Positions 1,011 through 61,049 of a stretch of DNA of 64,000 bases are shown in pieces (the first letter of the stretch is position 1; the number at the start of each line of letters is the position of its first letter). The position numbers and the translations under genes are program-made. The notes under the pieces were generated by a model that saw only the letters and a program-made list of their open reading frames with translations, made no database searches and had not been told where the DNA came from. The DNA is from a virus, in the IMG/VR virus record IMGVR_UViG_3300047547_000167, positions 1 to 64,000 of that record; one strand, 5' to 3'.

Positions 1011-2015
1011 TCACGCCTGCTTCTGAACCGCTCGCGTTATGTTTCCGTCCTTGTCGCGTTCGATCTCGGTGACCACGCGGCGAGGCTCTGGCAATTCTAG
1101 TGTCACGTTCGGAGCGGGAACCACGACCGGCTCAATATTCACGACAGGGGCCGCCACGTTGACCACTGGCGCGGGCACGACCACGGGGTCGATGTTGACG
1201 ACCGGGGCCGCCACATGAACGTCGGGGGCCGCGACGTTGACCACTGGCGCAGGCACCACGACCGGCTCGATGTTGACAATCGGCGCTGGCTGCTGGGGGA
1301 CGTTGACGTGCACCACGGGCGGCTGCGCCTCGGGCACCGTGACGTTGACCACGGGCGCCACTTGCTCCGGCACCTTGACGTCGATGCGCGGGTCAAAGTG
1401 GATGACAGGCTGGGCTTGCGCGAGGGCCTGGATGGCCCCCACAAGCTGCGATTGAAGCTCGGCCAGGCCATCCAGGCGGGCCACGATGGCAGAGGCGTCC
1501 TGGGCACCGCTGGCGGCCACGGACGCGGCAGTCTGGTGCACGGCCACCACCATACCGTCCAGTGACTTCGCCAGGTCGGACAGACCATGCAGGTCCACGC
1601 GCGTCGCGGCGGGCATCAGGCTCACGGCGGGCGCATGAAAAGACTTGGCGAGAGCCGACGGCCGCGCCTTGGGCTTGTCCAGCGCCAGGCGCTCGCCACG
1701 GGCCTCGGGCGGGATGCCGACATACCGGCGGTTGCCGGTGGAGTCCGCCACGATCATGCCGTCGGAGCCTTGCTCCAGAACCCGGTACCGCTGCACGGCC
1801 CGCTTCTTGTGGCCCGCGATGTGCTCCCACTTGACCCTGTGCTGGGCGCCGCCGTGCTCCACGGTGCAGCCGTGCTGGCCGACGCAAATCACCTTGCCGG
1901 AAACGGGGGTGCCTGCCTTGTGGAAATAGACCTCATCACCCGGGAATGCGTGGCACACGGCTGGCGTGGCCGCCTGCTTTTGATTGGGCGTCTTGGGGGC
2001 GTTGAAGCTGGCCAT
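1011..2015 (-). CDS. head-region protein with PVVNV/PVVVPAP repeats
   Basis: Overlaps portal stop; about 9 (A/P)P(V/I)V(N/H)(V/I) repeats; two LAKS motifs. Confidence 0.7.
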   Translation of the reverse strand: MASFNAPKTPNQKQAATPAVCHAFPGDEVYFHKAGTPVSGKVICVGQHGCTVEHGGAQHRVKWEHIAGHKKRAVQRYRVLEQGSDGMIVADSTGNRRYVGIPPEARGERLALDKPKARPSALAKSFHAPAVSLMPAATRVDLHGLSDLAKSLDGMVVAVHQTAASVAASGAQDASAIVARLDGLAELQSQLVGAIQALAQAQPVIHFDPRIDVKVPEQVAPVVNVTVPEAQPPVVHVNVPQQPAPIVNIEPVVVPAPVVNVAAPDVHVAAPVVNIDPVVVPAPVVNVAAPVVNIEPVVVPAPNVTLELPEPRRVVTEIERDKDGNITRAVQKQA

Positions 2016-3724
2016 CAGGGCTCCACGGTGAACACGGGCAGGCCAAACGACTTCTGCATGTCCTGACCATCGTCCTCCTGCCCGGGGTCGGGCTGGCCGC
2101 CGTCATCGAACATGCCGTCTTCAGGCTCGCCGCCCTGCTGGTCGTCGCCATCTTCAGGCGGCTGTCCACCGCCGGGCCCGGGGGCGCCGTAGTCCTCCTG
2201 CTGGGCCTGGTTTTCAGCCTGCCACGCCGACATCAGCGCAGGGTTGAGCGGGGCGTTGCCCCATTCGCCCTTGACCTCTTCCATGCCCTGGGCCTTGCGG
2301 GCTTCGTTGAGCGTGAGGATGGTCTTGTCCTTGTCCCAGCGCATCTGGGGGTCTTCTTCATCGAGGCCAGTCCAGCGGAAGACGTACTTGTCGCCGAACT
2401 CGGACACGATGTAGTCGGAGAACAAATCCTCGAAGTGGGACAGCAGCGGGCGCAGGCCCTTGTCCTTGCTGTTGATCAGCTTCTCTTCGGTGTCGGAGCC
2501 AGACAGCGAAGACGTGCCAGCGGTGAACGACTCGAAGTTGATCTCGTCCGGCGCGATGCCGTAGATCGCGCAAATGATGGACGTGAGGAACGTCATCCAC
2601 TTGGCGAACATGATCTCGTTCACGTCCACACCGAAGTTTTCAAACGCGGCCTTGGACTCCTGATTTTTCGACACCAGCACGGGGAGCGTCCACGCGTTGT
2701 TGATGCCCTTCACCATGGCATTCCAGTACCGCTTGAAGGCGGCCATGTCCTGGTCGCTGTACTCGCCGGTCAGGTGCAGCAAGCCCTTGGGGATAGCATT
2801 CGAATCGAAATACTTGGTGTTGTACGAAAAGGCGTTGAGGAAGCCCGTGACCACGCGCACCAGCAGCTCGGTCTCGGACAGGCCGTAGCCGCCCACCAGG
2901 ACATCGGTGCGGGGATTGCGCGGGACGTAGATCAGGTCGTCGTGGGTGTAGGCGGCCCGGATGTTCCCATCCACCACCTGGAGCGCGAAAATCTCATCCT
3001 CGTCGCGGTAGCCGATCTCGTTGGCGAGCCGGATGGTCGCGCCGTCCACGGCATACATGCCGTCAATCCCCAGCGACTTGTCGCGCTTGTATTCGGTTTC
3101 GATTGGGGCGCTGTCCAGCGTGAGGCTGTCGCGCACCAGCTTGGCCATCAGGTTGGAGAAGTTGTCGCGCTTCAGGCGGGCGCGCTGGCGCGGGTTGCGC
3201 TCCCAGCCGCTGTGCGTGAAGAAGTCCTGCATCAGCGCGATGGATTGCTGCTCGTCGCTGCCAAGTTTTGCGTTGGGGTCTTTCAGGCGCACCTGGAACC
3301 CAGGGCCCTTGCCACCGTCGGGCACGCGGCAAAACCGCTTCACCTGACGGATGCGGGTGAAGATCACGGCCGACAGAATCGGGGTCTGGTCAACCATGCC
3401 GCGCAGCATGTCGAAGCTCATGTTCGACCACCGCTCGCGCCACTCGCCCATGGCGTTGCCATAGGTGTCGTTCACCCACACGGACTGCATGCCCGCCTTG
3501 CCGTCGGCGATGGCTTTGCTCGGAAAAGGTATGACCTTGGCGTGAGACAAAGACTTTGAAAGCTCTTGTTCGGCGTATTGCTCGCGCATGAACTCAACAA
3601 TCGGCATCATGTCCGCAACGGACGAAGGAACAACGCTCGACTGAGCCTGCAGCATCGCATCCGCCCGCTCGTCATTCGGTGCGAATTGGTTGTATGCCGT
3701 TTCGAGGGCTTTCTGTGTTGTCAT
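2015..3724 (-). CDS. phage portal protein
   Basis: 569 aa; motifs VDGATIRL, GYGLSETE, PKGLL, NAWTLPV, TLNEAR; acidic tail; near TerL. Confidence 0.85.
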   Translation of the reverse strand: MTTQKALETAYNQFAPNDERADAMLQAQSSVVPSSVADMMPIVEFMREQYAEQELSKSLSHAKVIPFPSKAIADGKAGMQSVWVNDTYGNAMGEWRERWSNMSFDMLRGMVDQTPILSAVIFTRIRQVKRFCRVPDGGKGPGFQVRLKDPNAKLGSDEQQSIALMQDFFTHSGWERNPRQRARLKRDNFSNLMAKLVRDSLTLDSAPIETEYKRDKSLGIDGMYAVDGATIRLANEIGYRDEDEIFALQVVDGNIRAAYTHDDLIYVPRNPRTDVLVGGYGLSETELLVRVVTGFLNAFSYNTKYFDSNAIPKGLLHLTGEYSDQDMAAFKRYWNAMVKGINNAWTLPVLVSKNQESKAAFENFGVDVNEIMFAKWMTFLTSIICAIYGIAPDEINFESFTAGTSSLSGSDTEEKLINSKDKGLRPLLSHFEDLFSDYIVSEFGDKYVFRWTGLDEEDPQMRWDKDKTILTLNEARKAQGMEEVKGEWGNAPLNPALMSAWQAENQAQQEDYGAPGPGGGQPPEDGDDQQGGEPEDGMFDDGGQPDPGQEDDGQDMQKSFGLPVFTVEP

Positions 3725-4415: not shown

Positions 4416-4431
4416 AGTGTGCCGTCACGAC
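4416..4431 (-). promoter_or_regulatory. putative late promoter GTCGTGA-CGG-CACACT, 6 nt before ATG
   Basis: Member of a motif family recurring upstream of late genes. Confidence 0.7.
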
Positions 4432-5293: not shown

Positions 5294-5751
5294 GAAAACG
5301 CACGCGCCGCAAGGTTTACCCCCTGGTGAACCCCATCGAAATGGCAATCAGTGGCGCAGGTATCGCCACGAACGACCGACTGGACAAACTCCGCGCCCTG
5401 GAGCTGTCCGCCATCGACGCCATTGCGCACGGGTCCGGCACGATGGGCGACCTTGGGACGCTGCGCGACATGCTCAACATCGCAGAGGTGATGGCACTTG
5501 GCGGGGTTGGCCCGGAAGTGCTGGAGCCGTCCCGGCTCGCTCAGCGCGAGCTGGTGGACATGATCGAGCGCCACAACCGAACGGGGCGCATTGGCTCCAC
5601 CGGGGCCGGGCTTGAAGCATTCCGCGAGGCATACCGGTGGCACGACATCCAGCGCACCAGCATCGCGCGCAGCGAGTACGAGCACTTCATCAAGAAAACG
5701 GCCAACGCCATCAAGGGCGGCAAGGCCAAAGCGGTCACGGTGGTCGCTTAA
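5290..5751 (+). CDS. hypothetical phage protein
   Basis: ATGA overlap with dut; MRKRTRRKVYPLVNPI. Confidence 0.7.
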   Translation: MRKRTRRKVYPLVNPIEMAISGAGIATNDRLDKLRALELSAIDAIAHGSGTMGDLGTLRDMLNIAEVMALGGVGPEVLEPSRLAQRELVDMIERHNRTGRIGSTGAGLEAFREAYRWHDIQRTSIARSEYEHFIKKTANAIKGGKAKAVTVVA

Positions 5752-8369
5752 ACCGCAATGAACAACGGGCACCCGGGGTCGGTTTCGCGCACGCGAACAC
5801 CATCCCGCTCGTTGCACCGGCCGTTGTCGAATGAGATGCACCGGCCACACACGTCGCCGGACACCTGCAGCACCTCCTGAATGGCATTGCTCAGCGTCGG
5901 CGTGTAGCGCTCCAGCACCACCTGCACCGATGTCTCCTTGGGCTTTTCAGGCTCCGGCAGGATGAACATATTGGTGCCATACGCGCGGGCCCAGGCTACG
6001 TCAGTCAGCATATTTGCGTAGCTAGAGTGCGGGTCAATCCCCACTTTAACCACCCGGCGCTTGAACTTCTTTTCTTCCTCGTCCTTTTCCGCGATCAGCG
6101 CCGTGCGCGTGAAGTGGAAGAACGCGTACTCCTTGCACACGGGCGACATGCGCCACTTGCCCTTCTCCAGCACCTCCTGCACCAGCCCATCGGGATCAGG
6201 GAACAGGCAGAGCTTTTTCTGGAATCGGCCCATCGACACCTGCATGCACTTGTACTGGTCGAGGGTGACGGTGTAGCGGTCCCGCAATTCCTCGTCCGTC
6301 CTGCGCTCGCTGGTGTCCAGCTTCGGGGCATCGCCCCAGCGCAGCATGTCGCCCTCCATGTTGCCGTACCCAGCCAGGAACACGCGGCCGTCATGGCGGC
6401 GGGCAAACGACTTGGCGTTGTCGTAGTTGGGCAGCGTTTCCACCACGCAGCACTGCACACCGTAGGCCGCCATCAGCTCGTCGCAGCGGTCCCATGGCGA
6501 GGCCTCGGGGTCGTCCTTCGTTGGCGCCCGGAAGATGTACTCCATGTGCACCACGGCCTGGCGACCGTCGGGCAGCCGCTCCTTGATGATGGCCACAATG
6601 AAGGAGCCCATCTGGTCGAGCCCCATGAAGGTGCCGCGACCGTTGCGTCGCCACTGGAGCCCGTACTCCATGCCCACGCGAGCGCACTCGTTGAGCATTT
6701 CCAGGTTCACCGGCACCTGGGACGGGTCGGTGTAGGGCTTGCCCAGCTTCCGGTTAAAAAAGTTCTTCATGTCGTCGGCGTTGTGGTACGCCTCGATGAT
6801 GTCCCGGGGGCTGATTGTGGGCGACAGGAACTGGGGGAAGTGCACCGAGCGAATCTCAGCGTCCGGCGCCTTTGCGATCCACTGGCCGACCTGCGGGTCG
6901 TCAATCCACCCCTGGCACGACACGCACCGGTACCGGTACTCGCCACGGGTGGTGCCACCCTCACGTTGCAGCAGGCGCGGCGCCTCGGCGTCGTAGCCGA
7001 TGCACTGGGGGAAGTTTTCGTCCAACACCTGCAGCGTCGCGCAGTGCGGGCACTCGGTGTGGAACTGGTGCTGGGTGCCCTTCTTGTACCAGAAGTGAAT
7101 GTCGGAATCCGGCCAGTTGGCCGTGGAGCCCATGAGCGTGTACCGCAGCGCCGAGGCGGACATACGCTCGCGGGTTTTCTCCATGTCCGCGATTGCCATC
7201 TCCTGCACCTCGTCAAACGAGACGACATCCATAGGGAAGGATTCGGTCGCGGTCTTGCCGGTGGTCCAGAGGAAGTGAAACCGGGATGAGCCCAGGTTTC
7301 GGATCAAGATGTTGCCCTCGCCCCCACGGCCACCAGAGGCCTGCTTCTCGGTCATCAGGGCGTACACGTCGGGCACGGTCCGCACGATGGGCATGAAGCG
7401 CTCGCTCGACTTGCCGGACGCCAGCATCTGCGAGGGCATGAACATGCCGATCTTGGCCGGCGAGAACCGCATGGCCAGGTAGATCATGGCCAGCATTTCC
7501 ATGACGGTGAAGCCCACCTGCGTGCACTTCATGATCACGTCGGTGCGGTTGAAGGCGTCCTCAATCGTGGCCGGGATGAGGTCGTAAATGAACCGCATGG
7601 CCGGGCGGTCGGACAGCGTGAAGGCGCGGCCGTCCACCTTCAGACCATCGGCCTCCAGCCGCTCGCACCACTGGAGGAACGTCTCGCCGGGTTTGAGCGA
7701 GCGCTGCTCCTGGGTGAACTCGACGGCCACGTCAAAGAACTCGGCGCCGAACCGCTGGCGCTGCTCCAGCTCGGTGGCCAGCGACGCCGCCAGGCGCGCC
7801 TCTTCGGGCAGGTGCGGATTGCAGAAGCTGTCGAACTGCCACACCGACCAGTCGGGGTCGGTCTGGCCGAGGCGGCACAGCCGGTAGAAGTCGTTGCGCT
7901 TGCCGAAGGCCCCGGACAGAAACCAGGCGTCGCCGTTGTAGACCTTCAGCATGGGGCGGAGCACGTCATCCCACAGATTGAGCAGGCCCTCCACCAGCCG
8001 GGCGTCGTCCACCACGATCAGGCCGTACTGCTCGAACAGCTCCTGGGGCTTTTCCAGGCTGTAGAAGTCGATGAATCCGCCGGACACCAGCTCCAGGCGG
8101 CGCGCATTGACGCGGCGTTTGATGAGCGGGTCGATGGACCGCATCACCTGGCGGCGGGCCTCGATCATGGCGTCGTCGGTGGGCGAGAACCAGGCCACGG
8201 GCTTTTTGCTGTTGAACGCGCCCTTGGGGCCCGCCAGCAGCACCTCGATGCCGAGCGTGGTCTTCCCGAACTGCTCCCCGGCGGCCACGGCGTTGAACCG
8301 GCTGGCCCGCGCCAGCGCCTTCTGCTGGGCTGCGTGGGGGGTTGGGAGCGAGATTTTTACTTGGGCCAT
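5748..8369 (-). CDS. terL: terminase large subunit (gpA type) with extra N-terminal degenerate terminase ATPase domain
   Basis: KCTQVGFT, SFDEVQEM, CPHC/CVSC, FFNRKLGKPY, GLDQ in the C-terminal part; PHAAQ...GEQFGKT...VVDDA...NPHL in the N-terminal ~213 aa. Confidence 0.85.
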   Translation of the reverse strand: MAQVKISLPTPHAAQQKALARASRFNAVAAGEQFGKTTLGIEVLLAGPKGAFNSKKPVAWFSPTDDAMIEARRQVMRSIDPLIKRRVNARRLELVSGGFIDFYSLEKPQELFEQYGLIVVDDARLVEGLLNLWDDVLRPMLKVYNGDAWFLSGAFGKRNDFYRLCRLGQTDPDWSVWQFDSFCNPHLPEEARLAASLATELEQRQRFGAEFFDVAVEFTQEQRSLKPGETFLQWCERLEADGLKVDGRAFTLSDRPAMRFIYDLIPATIEDAFNRTDVIMKCTQVGFTVMEMLAMIYLAMRFSPAKIGMFMPSQMLASGKSSERFMPIVRTVPDVYALMTEKQASGGRGGEGNILIRNLGSSRFHFLWTTGKTATESFPMDVVSFDEVQEMAIADMEKTRERMSASALRYTLMGSTANWPDSDIHFWYKKGTQHQFHTECPHCATLQVLDENFPQCIGYDAEAPRLLQREGGTTRGEYRYRCVSCQGWIDDPQVGQWIAKAPDAEIRSVHFPQFLSPTISPRDIIEAYHNADDMKNFFNRKLGKPYTDPSQVPVNLEMLNECARVGMEYGLQWRRNGRGTFMGLDQMGSFIVAIIKERLPDGRQAVVHMEYIFRAPTKDDPEASPWDRCDELMAAYGVQCCVVETLPNYDNAKSFARRHDGRVFLAGYGNMEGDMLRWGDAPKLDTSERRTDEELRDRYTVTLDQYKCMQVSMGRFQKKLCLFPDPDGLVQEVLEKGKWRMSPVCKEYAFFHFTRTALIAEKDEEEKKFKRRVVKVGIDPHSSYANMLTDVAWARAYGTNMFILPEPEKPKETSVQVVLERYTPTLSNAIQEVLQVSGDVCGRCISFDNGRCNERDGVRVRETDPGCPLFIAV

Positions 8370-8422: not shown

Positions 8423-9127
8423 TCAGTCGTTCATGAGGTGGCCCGAGTGGGTTACCCAGGCGCGGCGGTCGCCGGAATCAGATTGGTGCGAATACTCGTA
8501 GGACGCCTCGCCGGTTTTCATGTTCTTGCCGGACTTGCCGGTGAACGAGAACAGCTTGCCGTCGTGGTGCACCATGTGGTCGCCCTTGCCGTTGCTGGGT
8601 GGCTCGAACCCGCCAACGTGATGCGTGGAGCCGTCGTCGTGCTTGGCGGCCAGCTTGTCGCTGTTCTTTGCCAGCAGCGGGTACTTTTCACTGCCCACGT
8701 TGGTCATGCGCGCTGGCGCGGCGGAGCCGGTTTTGGCGGCGGCCTTCTTCGGCAGCGCCAGGCGGGGCTCGGGCTGCTTGTCGCCATCCAGCGGCGCATG
8801 CTTATACCCGTTCTTTTCCATGCGCTGCGAGTCGGCGCCATTGACCACGACGTGGTGCCCGTGTTCAGGGTGCGACATGACGAAGGCCCCACCCTTGGCA
8901 CCGGCAGCCTTCGCGGCAAACGAGTGAGCGGCGGCAGCATTCGAGAACGCAGCCACCCCAGATTTGTACTTTGCCCCGGCGGCGACCGCGTGGGCCACGG
9001 CAGGGTGAACCTGAGCCGCCATCCGCTTGTCATCGTGGGCCTGCACCACGGTGCCATCAGACCGCGTGTACTGGTCCACATGAGACTTCAGCAGGTCAGG
9101 GAAAACGATGATGGTTGGCTTCGACAT
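8423..9127 (-). CDS. basic His/Ala-rich putative internal head protein
   Basis: Own late promoter and GGAG RBS; N-terminal LLKSHVDQYTRSDGTVVQAH motif. Confidence 0.65.
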   Translation of the reverse strand: MSKPTIIVFPDLLKSHVDQYTRSDGTVVQAHDDKRMAAQVHPAVAHAVAAGAKYKSGVAAFSNAAAAHSFAAKAAGAKGGAFVMSHPEHGHHVVVNGADSQRMEKNGYKHAPLDGDKQPEPRLALPKKAAAKTGSAAPARMTNVGSEKYPLLAKNSDKLAAKHDDGSTHHVGGFEPPSNGKGDHMVHHDGKLFSFTGKSGKNMKTGEASYEYSHQSDSGDRRAWVTHSGHLMND

Positions 9128-9157
9128 GGTGGCTCCAGAATTTCCGACAGTATGCGG

Positions 9158-9502
9158 TCACGACAGGCTGCCGCGTGGAGCGCGAGCGTATGGGCCACCG
9201 GGTTGCAGCGGAGCCACGGCGTGCCAGACATCCATGTAGGCGTCGTGCAGCTTGCGGTCCTTGGTTGAGCCTTTGAAGTTCGAGTAACCAATACCCATGA
9301 TCCGGGCGGAAACAGCATCAGCAATCACGGTGCGTTTGATTGCGGCGCGATAGCGGTAGTCCGTGCCGAAGCTCTCGACAACGGTGACGCCGGGAAACAC
9401 CCGCTCAATGTCACCGGGACGGCGAGCGCGAACAAGCAGCTCGTCGTGCTCGCACTCTTTGTCAACAATTGAAAGAAAGGCGTCGTTGAAACAGGCCCAC
9501 AT
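9158..9502 (-). CDS. conserved-looking phage hypothetical protein
   Basis: AGGAG RBS; MWACFNDAFLSIV...LLVRAR...DYRYRA...YSNFK; start corrected from ORF track. Confidence 0.75.
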   Translation of the reverse strand: MWACFNDAFLSIVDKECEHDELLVRARRPGDIERVFPGVTVVESFGTDYRYRAAIKRTVIADAVSARIMGIGYSNFKGSTKDRKLHDAYMDVWHAVAPLQPGGPYARAPRGSLS

Positions 9503-9531
9503 GAGAACACTCCTAAAAAATTGGTGAGGCA

Positions 9532-9554
9532 ATGTTACCTCAACAATTTTGCGG
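9532..9554 (-). promoter_or_regulatory. 17-bp operator + TAACAT -10
   Basis: CCGCAAAATTGTTGAGG-TAACAT on minus strand. Confidence 0.65.
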
Positions 9555-9566
9555 CGCGTTGCTTTC

Positions 9567-10376
9567 TCAGAACAATTTTTTACTGCCGGTCCACTTCGCC
9601 TGCGCAGGCGGCTCGGGCTTCTTCGGGGCCGGGCCAGCGCCGATGGCCTCGGCCACTGGGTGGTCGGCCCAGCCGTTGAGCAGCTCGTACAAGTTTCCCT
9701 TGGGGCACAGGTGGACCGCTTGGGTTTCCCAACCTGAGTCCGTGGGGTCGCCGCCAACGCGCACGGCGCGGTACATGCGGGCCTTTGACGTGGTGCGGTC
9801 GAAGTCCCCAATGAAGCCGGTGATCCGCACGCGGAGCCCGGTCTCTTCAAAGGCCTCCTTGATTGCGTTCGCCTGCAAGCTGAGCCCCTTCTCCGCCGTG
9901 CCCTTGGGCAGCGTGGCGTGGTAGCCCCCGAAGGCGTTGGTCGGCGCGCAGAGCCACACGCGGCCGTCCGGCTCTTCCACCACCACACCAGCACCGACGG
10001 ACTTGCCCGGGGCCACGTGGAACGCGGGCTCTTCGAGGTCTTCCGCGATGCCGTCGCAGTAATCCCACCCCTCCGCCGTGGTCGGCGCATCGCGCCAGCG
10101 GCGGAACGGCACGCCGTTCAACTCGCGCGGCACGTCGCCACCAGGCACGAACGTGGCCACGGCGTCGGGGTTGTCCCAGGTGGACTCGGCCGACGGATGG
10201 TGGGGGGCCTTGACCAGCACGGCCTCGCCCTTTTCGCCTGGCTTCGGGTGGTGGTGCGGCGGCAGCGGCTCGTGGCCATTGCGGTCATACGGGCGGACGT
10301 AGTGCTGCCCGCGCATGTGGCCCTTGACGTGGGCCTTGGCGAGATCGTCGCCGAACTCCAGCACGGCGTCAGTCAT
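9567..10376 (-). CDS. Nudix hydrolase with N-terminal LAKAHV extension
   Basis: Nudix box PKGTAEKGLSLQANAIKEAFEETGL; start at MTDAVLEF overlaps upstream stop. Confidence 0.85.
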   Translation of the reverse strand: MTDAVLEFGDDLAKAHVKGHMRGQHYVRPYDRNGHEPLPPHHHPKPGEKGEAVLVKAPHHPSAESTWDNPDAVATFVPGGDVPRELNGVPFRRWRDAPTTAEGWDYCDGIAEDLEEPAFHVAPGKSVGAGVVVEEPDGRVWLCAPTNAFGGYHATLPKGTAEKGLSLQANAIKEAFEETGLRVRITGFIGDFDRTTSKARMYRAVRVGGDPTDSGWETQAVHLCPKGNLYELLNGWADHPVAEAIGAGPAPKKPEPPAQAKWTGSKKLF

Positions 10377-10869
10377 TACCAACCACCCCCACCAGTGCCA
10401 TGGAGATCGACCGCACTGCCGCCACCAGGGTCTGCTGCGCTTCCTCTTCTGGCGCGCCAGCGGACACCTCGCGCAACAGGTCATAGACCGAGTGCACGAA
10501 CACCGCGAATGCCTGGGCCACAAGCTGAACGTCGTCATCCTCCGGCACCAGCTCGCGCTCCATGCGGTTGCGTAGGTGGTCGGCCAGCGGCTTACCCGTC
10601 CAGTTGCGCACGGGCGCATAGGCTGGGTCTGCACCAGTGAACACCCCGGCAAGCGCCAGGCACTGCGCCTGGTCGGCGGCAGCGGCATCGCTGGGTGTGA
10701 GCACGCCGTGCCCCACCTCGTCAAACCGCGTGATCACCTCGGAGGCGAACTGGCGCACGATGCGCTCGACCGCCTGAATGTCGCCCAGGAACGGGCGGCC
10801 ATCGGTGGCGGCCTTCAGGGATTCCAGAAGGCCGGACGGGTCGGTGTGGCGGTCAAGTTTGTCGGTCAT
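10369..10869 (-). CDS. hypothetical helical protein between ART and Nudix genes
   Basis: 166 aa, tightly coupled to both neighbours. Confidence 0.75.
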   Translation of the reverse strand: MTDKLDRHTDPSGLLESLKAATDGRPFLGDIQAVERIVRQFASEVITRFDEVGHGVLTPSDAAAADQAQCLALAGVFTGADPAYAPVRNWTGKPLADHLRNRMERELVPEDDDVQLVAQAFAVFVHSVYDLLREVSAGAPEEEAQQTLVAAVRSISMALVGVVGND

Positions 10870-10873
10870 GGTT

Positions 10874-13800
10874 TTATTCCGTTGGCAGGATGATAGCCTC
10901 GATCACATGGGCCTGGCCATGCGCGCCGAAGCCGTCGGCGTCTTTTCCGCCGCTGCGGACAGACATGACCAGCAGGCGGGTACCAGGAGGCAGGATCATC
11001 TCATCCTCACCGGACTTACTGGAAAGCGCACCGCCGCCAGGAAGCGAGTGGTGACCCACCCACAACCCCTTCACACCGGGACCGACGTGCAGCTTCAGCT
11101 GAACATTCTTCACCCACGACGACGGGCGAATTGATGTGGACATGATCGCTGGCTCTTGCAGAATCTTGCCCACCGAACCGAGAACGGCCTTCAAATTTTC
11201 CCCATGCAAACTCAGCTGACGAGAAAGGACCGTGCCCGGGGCAATGTCGTGCCCCAGCGTCTTCAGGGCCTCGCCGGCAGCCTTTGCCGCCCCCGTCGGG
11301 TTGCCGTCCCACAGTGAGCCGTTCATCGCGCCATACGAGCTGCCGGTGTACGACTTCACGGCCTGCTTTTGCGTGGCGGGCATCTTGGCAATCGCGGCCT
11401 GGGCCTGCTTGGCGTAGGTGTTCACAGACAGATTGCCGCCGCCCTCCGCATGCGTGATCTTCTCCGGTAGGCCCAACTCCGACAGCTTCACCACGCCAGG
11501 CTCGCCCAGCACGATGAACTTGCCCAGCTTCTGGGCGACCGTGCTGGAGGCTGGGCCGGTGAAGGCCGGATACGCCGCATTCAGCGAGTGCAGCGGGTGG
11601 CCGCCGTCAAACCTGAACTTCTTGGGCGGGTTGAGCTGGTAGTTGATCTCGTTGACGGCCTGCTGGGCGTAGCCCTTCACGTGCTGGCTCGGGTGCTCCA
11701 GCACGGGTTTCTCGCCTGTGACCTGCCCGGTGTCCTTGTCGTAGACCTTGGCCTTCAGGCCCTTGATGGCGTCCAGGTCGCCAGTCTTGGCGGCCGCGAA
11801 GATAGCCTGCACGGCCTCCTCGTTGGCCTTGTTGAGAAACTCCTTCGAGGACGGGCCCGAGCTGCCCTTGCCGCCCCAGTTGAGGAAGGAAGGCGGCGCG
11901 CTGATGTCCTCGGGCTTGAAGACCGGGGCCTTCTTCTTCTTGACGGCGGCGGGGAACCGTTTTGCCAGGTCAGCCTTGCGGGCGATCAGCGTGTCGGCCA
12001 GCTTCGCCTTGGCGGCGGCGTCGCCGGGGCCGTACTGGTTGACCATGGCCCGGATCGCCACGTCGCTGATGGCCAGCACCTTTGCCGCGCTGGCAGTCAG
12101 GTCGGCCGTGGTCATGCCCTTGAAGACAGACGCGGCCTGCGGGTTCTTGCCCGCATCCAGCAGGGTGTCCAGCTCGTCCACCTTGGAGCCAAACGGCTTC
12201 TTCTCGCCCTGGGCGCGGTATTCGAGCGAGCCACCGGCATCCACGCGGTGGGCCTTGCCGTCGGGGCCGATCTGCAGGTTGTCGTAGGACAGCCCGACCA
12301 CGTCCCAGTTGCCCAGCCAGGCATCGACCACGAAGCCGGACTGAGCGCCGTCGGCCTTGGCGAGCGCGCTGGCGCTGGCGGCCTTTTTGATGTCCACCCA
12401 CTTGGTGGCGATGGCGGTCTTGCCACCCTTGCTCACCAGCATGCAGTCCTGGGACGAGAGGCCCGCCAGGGCGTACAGCTTGGCCGCGAGCACCTCGGAC
12501 TTGGCCGCCTCGGCGTCGTCCGGCCACTTGCAGTACCACTCCTGGCCGCTGGGGTCTTTGAACTTGCCACCGGGGTTGGAGCCGCCCTGCCCTCCGGTCT
12601 GGGCCCAGTTGTCCATGGATGGCAGGCCGCCGGACGGGGTGGCCGGGGCTGCTGCGGGAGGCGGAACGGGGGCGGAGGCAGGTGTGGCGCCGCTGTCCCA
12701 CTGGCTGACGTCCACACCCATGGCCTGCGCCACGGCTTTGATGTGTTTCGCGGTCTTTGGAAGGCTAAACGACACGGCCTTGGCGTAAGCCTCCGCCATG
12801 CCGGGGCCGTCGCCCTTCTTGGCTGCGGCGGTGGCCAGCTTGCCCGCTCCGTTGGTGGAGAATTTGGTCTGGCCGGGAGTGATGGTCTGAATGGCGGTGC
12901 TGATGTCGATCAGGGTCGCCTTCTTGACCTTGGCTGGGGCGGCCTGCTCGACCTTCACCCAGTGCCCATTTTTGAACACCAGCATGCCGTCAGCGCCCTG
13001 CTTGGTGTCGCCTTCTTTCGGGCCAGCCTCGGCCGCCGCCAGCGCATCAATCGCGGCCTGCTGCGTTGGGAAGAACTGGCCGTGCAGCACGTCGGCCTTG
13101 GCCTCGTTGTGGGCGACGACGAACCACCCCAGGCCCGCAGCGTTTTTGTCCACCATTCCGCCGTCCGGGCCGGGCTTGGTGGCCACGCCATCGGGGGAGC
13201 CGCTCCAGCCTTCGGGGAGCTTCGGGCCGGCACCAGGCTTCTTGCCATCAGCCAGCGCGTGGGCGTGCTCCAGCGCGTCCGACTCCTTGCTGAACGACTT
13301 GATCGTGGGCAGGAACTCGCCGGAATCCACGTCCTTGACGACCACCGAAAACTTGGACCCTGGGGCCGACTTCGGCGTGGCGATGTGCACCTCGTAGCCA
13401 GCCTTGGCGTCCGACGACGGGATGACGTGCAAGACCTTGGAGGCCGGGGTGTCGTGCACCGCCAGAGGGTCGGCCTCGGCGGCGGGAGCCGCGTACCCAC
13501 TCCCCTCCCCCTTCGCGTGCGCCAGAGCAGCAGCATGCAGGTCGAGCAGCTTCTTCGAGTTGGGCGTCTTGCCGTGCCACATCTTCTTGGCCGGGTCGGG
13601 CATGCCTTCCAGCACGGAGACGTTGCCCGCGTGGCCATGGTCGATGATCTTCTGGCCGACGCCTTGGTACAGCGCCTGCACGCCCGTGGTGGTCTTGCCC
13701 TCTTGAAAGTCGGGCATGGTCAGGGGGCCAGTGGGGGTGGCGGCCTCGGGCTCGGGCTCCTTCGGTGCCAGGTGCTCTGGCAGCCCAGTGGGATGCGGGT

Positions 13801-14278
13801 CGGCGGGCTCGGCCACCTGGGCGGCGGCGTGGGTGCCCGGCTTCTGGCCGGGGGTGACGGTGTGCGCGGAGCCGTGGAGCCCGAGCAAGTGGTTGGCGAT
13901 TTTGGCGAGCTTCGCGCCATAGGTGTTCGTGCCGTATTGAGCCCCAACGATAGCCGTCACGTCACCCGCGTCAGACCAGGTGCGCAGCTTTTCCAGCGCC
14001 TTGTTGAAGACCGGCGCGTTCACATTCGAGTCCGGCAGCTTCAACGCGGCCCACTGCTCGTCCGAAAAATGCGCAGCGGCCTCGTGGTGCCCGGCGGATT
14101 TGGGGTGGGCTGCGACCGGTGCGCCCTTGGGGGCTGGTGCGTCGGGAGTGATTTTGTGCCAGCGCGGAGGGTTGCCGTACTTGGCATAGCCGCCCTTGTG
14201 CGCAATCGAGGTACCGGTGCCGGGCCCGGACTTGAGCAGCAGGACGAGGCGCGGTGTGGTGGCGGGCATGGTGTGCAT
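10874..14278 (-). CDS. polyvalent protein: PI3/4-kinase/HipA-like kinase domain + C-terminal R-S-E ADP-ribosyltransferase
   Basis: GGSNPGG..WYCK, SEVLAAKLY, DAWLGNWDVVG..DN, RVDAGGSL; YTGSSY..MNGSL, LSR, MSTS, EDEMILPPGTR. Confidence 0.8.
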   Translation of the reverse strand: MHTMPATTPRLVLLLKSGPGTGTSIAHKGGYAKYGNPPRWHKITPDAPAPKGAPVAAHPKSAGHHEAAAHFSDEQWAALKLPDSNVNAPVFNKALEKLRTWSDAGDVTAIVGAQYGTNTYGAKLAKIANHLLGLHGSAHTVTPGQKPGTHAAAQVAEPADPHPTGLPEHLAPKEPEPEAATPTGPLTMPDFQEGKTTTGVQALYQGVGQKIIDHGHAGNVSVLEGMPDPAKKMWHGKTPNSKKLLDLHAAALAHAKGEGSGYAAPAAEADPLAVHDTPASKVLHVIPSSDAKAGYEVHIATPKSAPGSKFSVVVKDVDSGEFLPTIKSFSKESDALEHAHALADGKKPGAGPKLPEGWSGSPDGVATKPGPDGGMVDKNAAGLGWFVVAHNEAKADVLHGQFFPTQQAAIDALAAAEAGPKEGDTKQGADGMLVFKNGHWVKVEQAAPAKVKKATLIDISTAIQTITPGQTKFSTNGAGKLATAAAKKGDGPGMAEAYAKAVSFSLPKTAKHIKAVAQAMGVDVSQWDSGATPASAPVPPPAAAPATPSGGLPSMDNWAQTGGQGGSNPGGKFKDPSGQEWYCKWPDDAEAAKSEVLAAKLYALAGLSSQDCMLVSKGGKTAIATKWVDIKKAASASALAKADGAQSGFVVDAWLGNWDVVGLSYDNLQIGPDGKAHRVDAGGSLEYRAQGEKKPFGSKVDELDTLLDAGKNPQAASVFKGMTTADLTASAAKVLAISDVAIRAMVNQYGPGDAAAKAKLADTLIARKADLAKRFPAAVKKKKAPVFKPEDISAPPSFLNWGGKGSSGPSSKEFLNKANEEAVQAIFAAAKTGDLDAIKGLKAKVYDKDTGQVTGEKPVLEHPSQHVKGYAQQAVNEINYQLNPPKKFRFDGGHPLHSLNAAYPAFTGPASSTVAQKLGKFIVLGEPGVVKLSELGLPEKITHAEGGGNLSVNTYAKQAQAAIAKMPATQKQAVKSYTGSSYGAMNGSLWDGNPTGAAKAAGEALKTLGHDIAPGTVLSRQLSLHGENLKAVLGSVGKILQEPAIMSTSIRPSSWVKNVQLKLHVGPGVKGLWVGHHSLPGGGALSSKSGEDEMILPPGTRLLVMSVRSGGKDADGFGAHGQAHVIEAIILPTE

Positions 14279-14284
14279 GCCCGA

Positions 14285-14300
14285 AGTTTGCCCTCACGAC
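14285..14300 (-). promoter_or_regulatory. putative late promoter GTCGTGA-GGG-CAAACT, 6 nt before ATG
   Basis: Motif family member. Confidence 0.65.
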
Positions 14301-14621
14301 TCACGCCACCGGCACGACCTTGCAGCTCTTCGCGCCGAATTGGACCTCCACGTCCATGGCGAACACGCCCGACAGGCGGATCGGCGCGCGCTTGATGGAC
14401 AGCGACTCGGCGTGCGTGAGCATGTCCACAGACCACTCGTACTCGGGCATTTTGCGCGCCAGGCGCTTCGCCATTTTCATGGCCATGCCCTCGGTGGGCC
14501 GGATGGTGTAGATCATCCGGCGGCCGGGGTCTTGCGTGGGGAAGCCCGGGATGACCACGAGGATGGTCGGGTACTTCTTCGGCGGCTTCTTTTCCTTGGC
14601 CGGGGCGGCGGTTTCAGCCAT
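14301..14621 (-). CDS. hypothetical protein
   Basis: GGAGG RBS before MAETAAPAKEKK. Confidence 0.65.
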   Translation of the reverse strand: MAETAAPAKEKKPPKKYPTILVVIPGFPTQDPGRRMIYTIRPTEGMAMKMAKRLARKMPEYEWSVDMLTHAESLSIKRAPIRLSGVFAMDVEVQFGAKSCKVVPVA

Positions 14622-14847
14622 GCGACCTCCCGAGGTTGTACCAGTGGGCGGCGTTGGCCGAGACGTGGCCACCGCAGGCCGAGCACCGCCACTTGGCACT
14701 GAGCCGGGTCGGGTCTTCGCACTCGAAGTCGTGGCGCGGGCACGCATTCAGCACGGCGTTGTTGGCCTTCACCTCGTCCCAGATTTCCAGCATGGTCGCC
14801 CGGCTCAGGCCGGTGGCCGCGCCGATAGCGTCGACGGAATCAGCCAT
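14614..14847 (-). CDS. small Cys/His protein
   Basis: GGAGG RBS; CPRH, CSAC. Confidence 0.6.
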   Translation of the reverse strand: MADSVDAIGAATGLSRATMLEIWDEVKANNAVLNACPRHDFECEDPTRLSAKWRCSACGGHVSANAAHWYNLGRSHG

Positions 14848-17451: not shown

Positions 17452-18056
17452 CAGAACTCGCCCCCGTCGTCGGTACCGGTGGCCACGGCGGGCGCAGCAG
17501 CACCACGCTCGACCACAACGACGGTCTGGCCATCACCGGCGCGCGCGTCGTGGTTGATCCCGTAGGCACGGCACTCGCCCACCTGCACCAGGGTCAGGGT
17601 CTCGGCGGTGATCTTCGCCAGCTTGGCGCGCTCGAAGCCGCCAGCAATGTCGCCCTTGCCCGCCTGCTGCAGCGCCTCGTAAGCGACCTTGCGCGGGGCG
17701 GCCCACTCCTTGCGGTGGCGGTCCAGCACCTCGGCGCGGACATCGGTGGCGAACTCCTGGGCCACCTCACGGGAGGCCTCGGCGGCGGCGACTTCATCGG
17801 AAAGGGGTTTGCCCAGCTCTGACATGCGAACCTTGAATTTGTTGGCAAGCTCGCCAGCGCGAGCGGAAAGCCCGGCAGCGGGCCGGGTAGCGACGACCCA
17901 CTTGCCCTCGGACTTCCACGAGCGGATCAGCTTGTGATCCACGCCCACGGCAGCAGCCACGGTGTCGATGGTCGCGCCAGGCTGGCCCTCGAACAGCGCA
18001 CGGGCAGCAGCGCGGCGGCTGGCCATGTCCTCGACAAGTTTCTTTTTTACGGTCAT
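17451..18056 (-). CDS. putative terminase small subunit / HTH protein
   Basis: N-terminal HTH (TIDTVAAAVGVDHKLIRSWK), helical body; late promoter; adjacent to ParB-MTase. Confidence 0.55.
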   Translation of the reverse strand: MTVKKKLVEDMASRRAAARALFEGQPGATIDTVAAAVGVDHKLIRSWKSEGKWVVATRPAAGLSARAGELANKFKVRMSELGKPLSDEVAAAEASREVAQEFATDVRAEVLDRHRKEWAAPRKVAYEALQQAGKGDIAGGFERAKLAKITAETLTLVQVGECRAYGINHDARAGDGQTVVVVERGAAAPAVATGTDDGGEF

Positions 18057-18062
18057 GGGCTG

Positions 18063-18078
18063 ATCGTGCCGTCACGAC
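18063..18078 (-). promoter_or_regulatory. putative late promoter GTCGTGA-CGG-CACGAT, 6 nt before ATG
   Basis: Motif family member. Confidence 0.65.
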
Positions 18079-48188: not shown

Positions 48189-48204
48189 ATTCTGGCGTCA
48201 CGAC
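48189..48204 (-). promoter_or_regulatory. putative late promoter GTCGTGA-CGC-CAGAAT
   Basis: Motif upstream of lysis cassette. Confidence 0.7.
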
Positions 48205-53153: not shown

Positions 53154-53169
53154 ATTGTCGCGTCACGAC
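53154..53169 (-). promoter_or_regulatory. putative late promoter GTCGTGA-CGC-GACAAT
   Basis: Motif family member. Confidence 0.7.
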
Positions 53170-53747: not shown

Positions 53748-53773
53748 TTTTAGTGTTGCATCACGACGAGGTT
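53748..53773. repeat. 26-bp direct repeat, copy 1 (contains late promoter)
   Basis: TTTTAGTGTTGCATCACGACGAGGTT, identical at 55186-55211. Confidence 0.9.
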
Positions 53774-55163: not shown

Positions 55164-55211
55164 GGTTTTATTTTCTTGGTCATGGTTTTAGTGTTGCATC
55201 ACGACGAGGTT
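55150..55211. repeat. 20-bp tandem duplication of the start region + 26-bp repeat copy 2
   Basis: ATTTTCTTGGTCATGGTTTT twice, then repeat. Confidence 0.9.
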
Positions 55212-61033: not shown

Positions 61034-61049
61034 ATTCTTGCGTCACGAC
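61034..61049 (-). promoter_or_regulatory. putative late promoter GTCGTGA-CGC-AAGAAT, 6 nt before ATG
   Basis: Motif family member. Confidence 0.7.

Follow-up and report, generated by a model that had tools for sequence, protein, structure and literature searches.

Large polyvalent proteins of phages and conjugative elements were described by Iyer, Burroughs, Anand, de Souza and Aravind in 2017 as late-gene products that join unrelated enzymatic domains, are encoded near the packaging genes and are predicted to be injected, with the ADP-ribosyltransferase (ART) as their commonest protein-modifying domain (PMC5512222). Packaged ARTs and Nudix proteins have also been predicted in myophages, with the Nudix proteins encoded near head genes (PMC9503650). 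Here, a three-gene block is described in the virus record IMGVR_UViG_3300047547_000167, in which the gene for a 1134-amino-acid (aa) protein with a kinase-like domain and an ART domain is followed by genes for a 166-aa protein and a Nudix hydrolase. The window analysed is the first 64 kb (64,000 nucleotides) of this complete 92,927-bp record (~64% G+C), and coordinates refer to it unless marked otherwise.

The 1134-aa protein resembles the polyvalent proteins in that kinase and ART stand in one polypeptide, encoded behind a candidate late-promoter motif and beside the genes for the large terminase TerL (5748-8369) and the portal (2015-3724). The Ser/Thr/Tyr kinase of the 2017 set lacks a C-lobe and is found mainly in prophages of Verrucomicrobia-Chlamydia and Bacteroidetes, whereas the domain in the window is predicted to be a complete, atypical CtkA/CotH-like kinase with an N-W-D catalytic loop. 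The polyvalent ARTs were set apart from the R-S-E Alt/VIP2 clade, whereas the window ART is of the R-S-E type, and neither a subtype-linked small partner nor an obligatory Nudix neighbour is described there (PMC5512222).

T4 Alt is, as the window protein is predicted to be, a late-made R-S-E ART; Alt-like PHROG families match the window C-terminus and the same mode of action is proposed. Unlike the window protein, Alt lacks a kinase domain and is accompanied by neither a dedicated partner gene nor a coupled Nudix. It is known to be packaged and to be processed at its N-terminus, while for the window protein we infer both. A functional precedent for a phage kinase is the T7 protein kinase Gp0.7, which phosphorylates many host proteins early in infection, but it is expressed early from the injected genome, stands alone and belongs to a different kinase family. 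According to a recent report, the T7 kinase disarms several defence systems by broad phosphorylation (PMC13645617).

Packaged polyvalent ART effectors and Nudix proteins are thus already known as predictions, and relatives of the present proteins are annotated in GenBank as ART and Nudix. Within the literature searched, the CtkA-like kinase family with its fixed ART pairing, the subtype-linked partner, and the kinase and Nudix core shared with the type III effector HopAG1 are apparently undescribed, and no paper on this module was found.

The block is probably best explained as a late effector module, consisting of a kinase and ART polyvalent protein, a partner and a Nudix hydrolase, that is packaged and injected. 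Its gene order, folds, catalytic residues and late-promoter motif are shown here, as are the joint exchange of ART and partner and the HopAG1 fusion; packaging and ejection, the targets, the role of the partner and the Nudix substrate we infer as follows. The module would be transcribed late from a phage-specific promoter, together with packaging genes. Its first gene would encode a polyvalent protein with an atypical kinase core followed by an Alt/VIP2-like R-S-E ART, its second a small, acidic and helical inhibitor or chaperone of the basic ART, to which it would bind in a subtype-specific manner, and its third a Nudix hydrolase. The proteins would be loaded into the particle and released with the DNA into the next host, where kinase and ART would covalently modify host proteins, either of the transcription/translation machinery or of defence, and the Nudix would hydrolyse a nucleoside-diphosphate-X, be it a molecule derived from nicotinamide adenine dinucleotide (NAD)/ADP-ribose or an RNA 5' cap. 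A sequence-only reading of the locus had proposed a late operon in which a kinase and ART 'writer' is paired with a Nudix 'eraser'. Its kinase, ART and Nudix assignments stand, the co-conservation that it set as a check was found, the idea of an ART-directed partner gains support, and the writer/eraser pairing is not supported.

Gene order, ART subtypes and the 166-aa candidate partner

All three genes are on the minus strand. The polyvalent effector gene occupies 10874-14278 (open reading frame, ORF, and translation), the candidate ART partner 10369-10869 (ORF list), and the 269-aa Nudix gene, whose product starts MTDAVLEF, 9567-10376 (ORF and Pfam). A 385-aa frame with a TTG start at 9567-10724 was rejected as the Nudix gene, being an over-extension of the 269-aa frame. 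The ATG of the 166-aa gene lies 4 nt after the TAA of the 1134-aa gene and the Nudix ATG overlaps the stop of the 166-aa gene (ATGACTGA), a start/stop spacing by which the three genes are translationally coupled. A terminator-like hairpin with a T-run at 9525-9542 (minus strand), just past the Nudix stop, closes the block. The tight coupling claimed from the sequence alone is therefore borne out, and so is the location in the head/packaging region, with TerL and portal adjoining.

The same order of large protein, ~160-aa gene and 250-285-aa Nudix was found in all eight isolated phages that encode homologues of the large protein (1134-2253 aa), namely the Pseudomonas phages Jeremy, Dolphis and Touem01, Yersinia phage fHe-Yen8-01, E. 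coli phage ECML-606-1, Enterobacter phage phiT5282EW, Morganella phage Mecenats66 and Aeromonas phage ST4. In IMG/VR, the kinase domain is present on 454 contigs; 79 IMG/VR loci were fetched, among which 56 non-redundant ones carry the three-gene order, with 350-510 residues, mostly 350-420, following the kinase domain. This neighbourhood survey agrees with the co-conservation that had been expected, and the block is a clade-wide module, not a novelty of this phage. It is probably typical of ~90-kb myophages related to Dolphis, Jeremy, Touem01, Mecenats66, ST4 and fHe-Yen8-01. Mecenats66 is a myovirus (PMC9503643).

The C-terminal domain of the large protein (10877-11566, minus strand) is a predicted R-STS-ExE ADP-ribosyltransferase, here of subtype A, as judged from Pfam, alignments and the catalytic triad. 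With a score of 28.5 bits (E 1.1e-6), it exceeds the cut-off of 23.4 for PF03496 (ADPrib_exo_Tox), and it also matches PHROG 3895 and 802, which are 'Alt-like RNA polymerase ADP-ribosyltransferase' families. R1020, S1047-T-S1049 and E1091-D-E1093 are invariant in 15 relatives, and the STS and ExE align to those of SpvB and VsdC. With a Pfam score above cut-off and an invariant triad, the intact ART motif reported earlier is upheld. In subtype B, as found in ST4, the corresponding motifs are R/K-W, M-C-x-S and E-x-E-(I/V)-T-T-L. Alignment of the two subtypes by hhalign gave a probability of 99.4 and E 1.8e-21, with the catalytic positions aligned, and a conserved middle region (aa ~790-905, HPSQHVKGY...QLNPP; 11564-11911, minus strand) is common to both in the alignment. 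On a tree of kinase plus Nudix, the ART subtype changes at least 9 times, five of which are forced by supported branches. The ART domain is basic, with an isoelectric point (pI) of 9.4.

Homologues of the 166-aa protein comprise 52 of 163-168 aa, one of 185 aa and one of 217 aa. The protein is acidic (pI 4.6), has no match in Pfam, PHROG or NCBIfam, and gave no usable match in the ESM Atlas. It was modelled by AlphaFold (AF2) as a six-helix bundle with a predicted local distance difference test score (pLDDT) of 84.6, for which Foldseek returned nothing at E<=1e-3. Identity with a TetR C-domain was rejected, since the best match in the exhaustive structural aligner VIA, Z 7.4, is below the meaningful level for helical bundles; a faint TetR_C_30 match, on two homologues only, was discounted likewise.

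The partner changes with the ART subtype and not with the kinase or the Nudix. Similarity was expressed as normalised bit score, and pairs of loci were matched at a kinase similarity of 0.55-0.75. Within subtype A (106 pairs), the values were 0.50 for the ART, 0.29 for the partner, 0.63 for the kinase and 0.54 for the Nudix, and between subtypes (121 pairs) they were 0.05, 0.06, 0.66 and 0.60, respectively. For Jeremy against locus L023, kinase and Nudix reach 0.78 and 0.74, with partner and ART both at 0.07. Partner class, assigned by profile, was concordant with ART subtype at 49 loci, with 2 borderline discordant and 5 unclear, and the partners of subtypes A and B are still homologous (probability 99.5). 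Co-variation with the ART, together with an acidic partner and a basic ART, is the pattern of a cognate binding partner, which these comparisons suggest the 166-aa protein to be. The earlier idea of an ART-directed inhibitor or chaperone gains support from the same two features, and an adjacent small gene that diversifies along with a toxin domain is what characterises a toxin/immunity or an effector/chaperone pair. As in the ART toxin/immunity pairs of polymorphic toxins and type VI systems, the small gene is directly 3' of a C-terminal ART, co-diverges with it and opposes an acidic to a basic protein. Unlike those pairs, the window partner is a candidate by sequence, may be packaged with the toxin and gave no match by homology to a known immunity family.

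Small acidic partners that are specific for their cognate effector are typical of secretion chaperones. Although this is less likely than not, the 166-aa protein could be a chaperone or adaptor for assembly or ejection and not an inhibitor, by which the ART end would be kept unfolded or docked for head loading or tail passage, or else a third effector. The same co-variation and charge complementarity would be expected from it as from an inhibitor, and the Yersinia homologue is labelled as particle associated, so it would travel with the effector; this label, however, is unspecific, and neither Foldseek nor VIA matched the model to a known secretion chaperone or an assembly factor.

The kinase-like domain

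Residues ~551-780 of the 1134-aa protein (11939-12628, minus strand) form a predicted atypical protein-kinase-like domain, as delimited by the AF2 model, structural matches and invariant residues. All motifs quoted in the sequence-only reading were found and could be numbered: GGSNPGG, WYCK (K584), SEVLAAKLY (E595), DAWLGNWD (D659), DN (N667) and RVDAGG (D680). The catalytic loop reads N657-W-D659 ... D-N667, and D680 lies within D-x-G-G. In the kinase-domain alignment, D659, N667 and D680 are invariant and E595 nearly so. The AF2 model, for which 16 short or stand-alone homologues served as the input alignment, has a pLDDT of 91.9 and places K584 on strand 3, E595 on helix C, and D659 and N667 in the catalytic loop.

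Foldseek returned 48 matches at E<=1e-3, all of them kinases, headed by CtkA (PDB 3AKJ/3AKK/3AKL), a secreted Ser/Thr kinase of H. pylori, with E 1.7e-6 and a template-modelling (TM) score of 0.61. With VIA, 42 chains reached Z>=8. CtkA was again the best match (Z 16.3 over 208 residues, root-mean-square deviation 3.5 A), followed by CotH (Z 14.0), PI4KII-alpha (Z 12.7) and MavQ (Z 12.4) and, lower, by HipA (Z 11.9) and actin-fragmin kinase (Z 10.5). At the level of the model, the two-lobed kinase fold expected from the motifs is confirmed, and its closest fold group is that of CtkA/CotH/PI4K/HipA. The likeness to CtkA ends with the structure: identity is 13-17% over the structural alignment, beyond the reach of sequence and profile searches. 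A phmmer search of PDB sequences with the whole protein found no CtkA and no kinase, only weak ART matches, and a PDB search with the kinase-domain profile found only the phosphatase part of fused members and no kinase. Therefore, the domain is not placed in the CtkA sequence family and is a fold-level relative only. No Pfam, PHROG or NCBIfam model describes it, and Pfam found no domain in the N-terminal 539 aa of the large protein, nor in the Gordonia and Actinomycetia homologues.

When 1.84 billion representatives were searched, the kinase domain matched 4691 clusters (50% identity) at E<=1e-3, nearly all of them inside proteins of 1000-7000 aa and some with 2-5 copies. ART subtype A or B follows the kinase in 125 of the 150 best representatives, and ART tails also occur in lineages further away. 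In bacterial genomes, 298 loci with the domain were found, including Pseudomonas cerasi and P. fragariae. In stand-alone bacterial forms (P0158-P0160), which are chromosomal, an N-terminal phosphatase of the dual-specificity/CDKN3 type is fused to the kinase-like domain, and this fusion fits a role in protein phosphorylation. An example of such a kinase/phosphatase outside phages is a 407-aa protein of Rhodovulum euryhalinum on a 239-kb contig. Endozoicomonas, which are symbionts of marine animals, have several kinase-domain loci per genome (L121-L123, L107, L108, L110, L115, L120, L128), and their proteins may be secreted effectors rather than prophage cargo.

The fold relatives PI4K, MavQ and LepB phosphorylate a lipid or small molecule, and the kinase-fold protein SidJ regulates SidE, which offers a model for a kinase domain that regulates the ART. 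A domain that is not a protein kinase, acting as a lipid or small-molecule kinase, in another ATP-dependent transfer or as a regulator of the ART, is conceivable but doubtful. The lipid kinases PI4KII-alpha and MavQ rank high among the structural matches, N-W-D takes the place of H-R-D in the catalytic loop, and the invariant pairing with the ART would fit a regulatory or sequential relation. However, the best match by a margin is a protein Ser/Thr kinase, CtkA, with CotH next, all five canonical catalytic positions are conserved, and the phosphatases fused to the stand-alone forms are of a protein phosphatase type.

Proposed late expression and delivery to the host

The window contains the motif GTCGTGA-N3-nAnnnT nine times, always on the minus strand; 0.25 occurrences were expected, and 0 of 100 shuffled sequences reached nine. 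In the copy before the 1134-aa gene, GTCGTGA-GGG-CAAACT at 14285-14300, the hexamer CAAACT ends 6 nt short of the ATG (14278), which would probably leave the mRNA with little or no leader. The remaining copies found by the pattern scan are at 4416-4431, 9149-9164, 18063-18078, 48189-48204, 53154-53169, 53752-53767, 55190-55205 and 61034-61049. Most copies lie 6-22 nt 5' of a start codon; genes preceded by a copy include the one after the Nudix block (9164), the one at 18056 and an HNH gene (4431). We regard the motif as a candidate for a phage-specific late promoter without a -35 box. Of the earlier claim that a late promoter drives the 1134-aa gene, the enriched and well-placed motif stands, and promoter function is suggested by that enrichment and position. 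An alternative promoter motif, GGGCAAACTTCGGGC, showed no enrichment and was rejected.

The 1134-aa protein starts with a peptide (aa 1-45, PRLVLLLKS...IAHKGGY...PPRWHK; 14144-14278, minus strand) that was recognised by comparing homologue N-termini. This peptide (RLVLLLKS...IAH..GY...RWHK) is a variant of a ~30-residue motif made of a hydrophobic stretch and L-x-K-[S/A]-H-V-x-x-Y/H-x-R/K-x-D-G-x-x-V-x-x-H-D. The Nudix protein has its own N-terminal motif, LAKAHVKGHMRGQHYVRPYDR (10281-10346, minus strand), with the aligned consensus L-x-K-A-H-V-K-G-H/Y-x-R-x-x-G-x-Y-V-R/K-P-Y/H. A profile of the Nudix motif also matches the N-terminus (9050-9127) of a 234-aa protein encoded at 8423-9127 (minus strand, E 1e-8), the N-terminus of a protein at genome positions 76831-77406 (minus strand, E 3e-7) and several further proteins in close relatives. 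In Jeremy, the gene upstream of the ART carries both motif variants in one peptide. The portal N-terminus is without the extended motif. In Yersinia phage fHe-Yen8-01, the profile found the Nudix only, so the shared signal is lineage-limited. By its sequence, the motif may be a particle-targeting (cargo-addressing) or a prohead-protease processing signal. Further inside the large protein, a peptide similar to the N-terminal ...GYxLxNGRWHK motif (14144-14278, minus strand) occurs at aa ~429-443 (12944-13006, minus strand). It reads GADGMLVFKNGHWVK, with the conserved form EGDTKQGADGMLV..NGHW among relatives, and short repeats of this kind may lie at domain borders or at sites of processing.

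All three homologues carry the label 'particle associated' protein in the GenBank entry for fHe-Yen8-01. The literature search found no paper on this phage and no proteomics of Mecenats66, and PHB04 is mentioned only in passing.

A closer view of injected use comes from a 701-aa protein of P. cerasi that belongs to a 90%-identity cluster named "Type III effector HopAG1". Its residues 261-515 match the window kinase domain (36% identity, E 8e-34) and its residues 495-685 match the Nudix of the window together with the pre-Nudix domain (45% identity, E 2e-48). HopAG1 was described by Hulin et al. as an N-terminal ART with a C-terminal Nudix, and a kinase domain is not mentioned (PMC9963460). Pseudomonas syringae HopAG1 is thus like the window module in having a kinase domain, here fused to a Nudix with its pre-Nudix domain, in having an ART (PMC9963460) and in being delivered by injection. 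It is unlike it in being a single polypeptide of 701-716 aa, without the 166-aa partner and with an N-terminal ART of another family, and in entering plant cells by a type III system and not bacteria by a phage; hhalign of the phage ART subtype B against HopAG1 gave no match. Since injected HopAG1 combines kinase, Nudix and ART, the case speaks, by analogy, for three activities that are linked and that operate in the recipient cell. The peptide that follows the kinase in the window, APVFKPEDISAPPSFLNW (11876-11929, minus strand), resembles the start of the pre-Nudix domain, EAVLVKAPHHPSAESTW (10176-10226, minus strand), and in HopAG1 one such peptide directly joins kinase and Nudix. Such a peptide could be left over from an ancestral fusion, or it could serve in docking.

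Presence in the virion and delivery to the host are likely but unproven. They are favoured by the candidate late promoter beside the packaging genes, by the polyvalent architecture with T4 Alt as its precedent (PMC5512222, PMC9503650), by the HopAG1 analogy and, with little weight, by the 'particle associated' label. We consider it unlikely that the module acts late in the producing cell, in host shut-off, phage-protein modification, superinfection exclusion or nucleotide-pool management by the Nudix. Such a role would agree with the late promoter, which is the only timing evidence, with the lack of a detected head-anchoring domain and with a weak proteomic label. It is opposed by the use of the kinase and Nudix core in HopAG1, which is active only after injection, by actinophages, in which a giant portal-adjacent gene holds the kinase domain (in Gordonia phage GodonK it is the large gene directly following the portal), by the precedent of T4 Alt for late-made packaged ARTs (PMC5512222), and by the peptide motif that the N-termini of the ART protein and the Nudix share with other late proteins.

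As for the surroundings, a 114-aa gene, the 234-aa gene and then TerL and portal lie 3' of the Nudix block, and small genes and a ParB-methyltransferase lie 5' of the 1134-aa gene, with only 22 nt between the upstream gene and the 1134-aa ATG. A Pfam scan of the neighbouring 114-, 234-, 106- and 334-aa proteins gave no match. The 148-aa ORF upstream of the ART gene (14301-14747, minus strand) probably represents two genes; within it, a 106-aa protein starts from ATG 14621, with the Shine-Dalgarno sequence GGGAGG, overlapping the stop of the upstream frame.

The Nudix hydrolase and the significance of the module

The Nudix hydrolase recognised in the sequence-only reading is secured by its Pfam match (PF00293, 42.2 bits against a cut-off of 21.1, E 1e-10). 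There are 581 homologues, the best 120 at >=62% identity and many of them on ~90-97-kb contigs. The conserved parts are the N-terminal motif, a pre-Nudix domain of ~85 residues (aa 40-125) and the Nudix fold (aa 126-240). In the Nudix box, G159..K173-E-A-F-E-E-T-G-L181, residues G159 and E174-A-F-E177-E178-T-G180-L181 are invariant; the position of Lys173 is Arg in 1 of 18 aligned relatives. Since the metal-binding E174, E177 and E178 are present, the enzyme is probably active. Sequence similarity to solved structures reaches only E ~1e-3, with a MutT-like protein and a diadenosine tetraphosphate (Ap4A) hydrolase as the closest relatives. The ESM Atlas gave generic Nudix clusters only and the NCBIfam matches were far below cut-offs, so no substrate can be assigned. 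In nine phage loci (L043, L044, L055, L059, L064, L068, L070, L082, L085), the Nudix protein is ~500-570 aa long and ends in a second kinase-like domain; in two others (L081, L090) the giant kinase protein encloses the Nudix. With the fusion in HopAG1, the link of the Nudix to the kinase is at least as close as its link to the ART.

Some Nudix enzymes process ADP-ribosylated proteins or ADP-ribose. In ADP-ribose pyrophosphatases, a Pro is expected 16 residues after the Nudix box; the window Nudix has Ser197 at this position, and it lacks the NudC motif SQPWPFPxS as well. To our knowledge, it carries none of the signature residues of ADP-ribose pyrophosphatases. That the Nudix erases the mark of the ART, by trimming protein-bound ADP-ribose to phosphoribose or by removing free ADP-ribose, is quite improbable: the genes are adjacent, translationally coupled and always co-conserved, ART and Nudix coexist in HopAG1, and T4 NudE uses ADP-ribose (PMC9503650), but Nudix similarity is independent of ART subtype (0.54 within A, 0.60 between) while ART and partner diverge to the detection limit, the Nudix fusions in phages and HopAG1 join the kinase domain and not the ART, and neither the closest solved relatives nor Ser197 points to an ADP-ribose pyrophosphatase.

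Several points weigh against the reading of the block as a packaged and injected effector module. A kinase fold may also serve in other reactions, or in the phosphorylation of a lipid or small molecule. The 'particle associated' label stands on ~58 of the 136 genes of fHe-Yen8-01 (~43%), including primase, methyltransferases and terminase, and applied so widely it carries little weight; Pfam found no MuF, portal or other known head-anchoring domain in the large protein. For the partner, VIA and Foldseek revealed no recognisable fold beyond a helical bundle. When its co-variation with the ART was reduced to independent pairs, ~4 changed in the same direction, 0 in the opposite one and 1 was unchanged (p 0.125, not significant), and since the ART tail and the partner gene are contiguous, a single recombination would swap both without a functional tie. 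Finally, the Nudix box differs from GX5EX7REUXEEXGU at two positions, the first Glu being Leu165 and the Arg being Lys173. The view of the block as an effector module of kinase and ART, cognate partner and Nudix is nevertheless well founded.

A more far-reaching version is put forward tentatively and is rather unlikely to hold in full. Kinase, ART and Nudix would then form one conserved injected weapon, used by phages against bacteria and, as HopAG1, by bacteria against plants, with the activities acting one after another on a shared target or defence pathway linked to NAD/ATP, and not as three separate effectors. In the phage, the subtype-specific acidic partner would keep the weapon inactive, and the N-terminal peptide (hydrophobic stretch, K-[S/A], H-V-x-G-Y-x-R-x-D-G-x-x-V-x-x-H) of several cargo proteins would address it to the particle.

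A very large kinase family that has no model and is almost always wired to an ART means that a major class of phage effectors is hidden under annotations that currently read only "ADP-ribosyltransferase" or "hypothetical". If the proposed delivery is true, a kinase and ART arriving ready-made with the DNA would act even earlier than the T7 kinase. The module is testable in cultivable phages of Pseudomonas, Yersinia, E. coli, Morganella and Aeromonas, and the joint swap of ART subtype and partner is a natural experiment for specificity. Through the core shared with HopAG1, the conflict between phages and bacteria is linked with that between pathogens and plants by one enzyme set, and HopAG1 gains a kinase domain that PMC9963460 does not mention.

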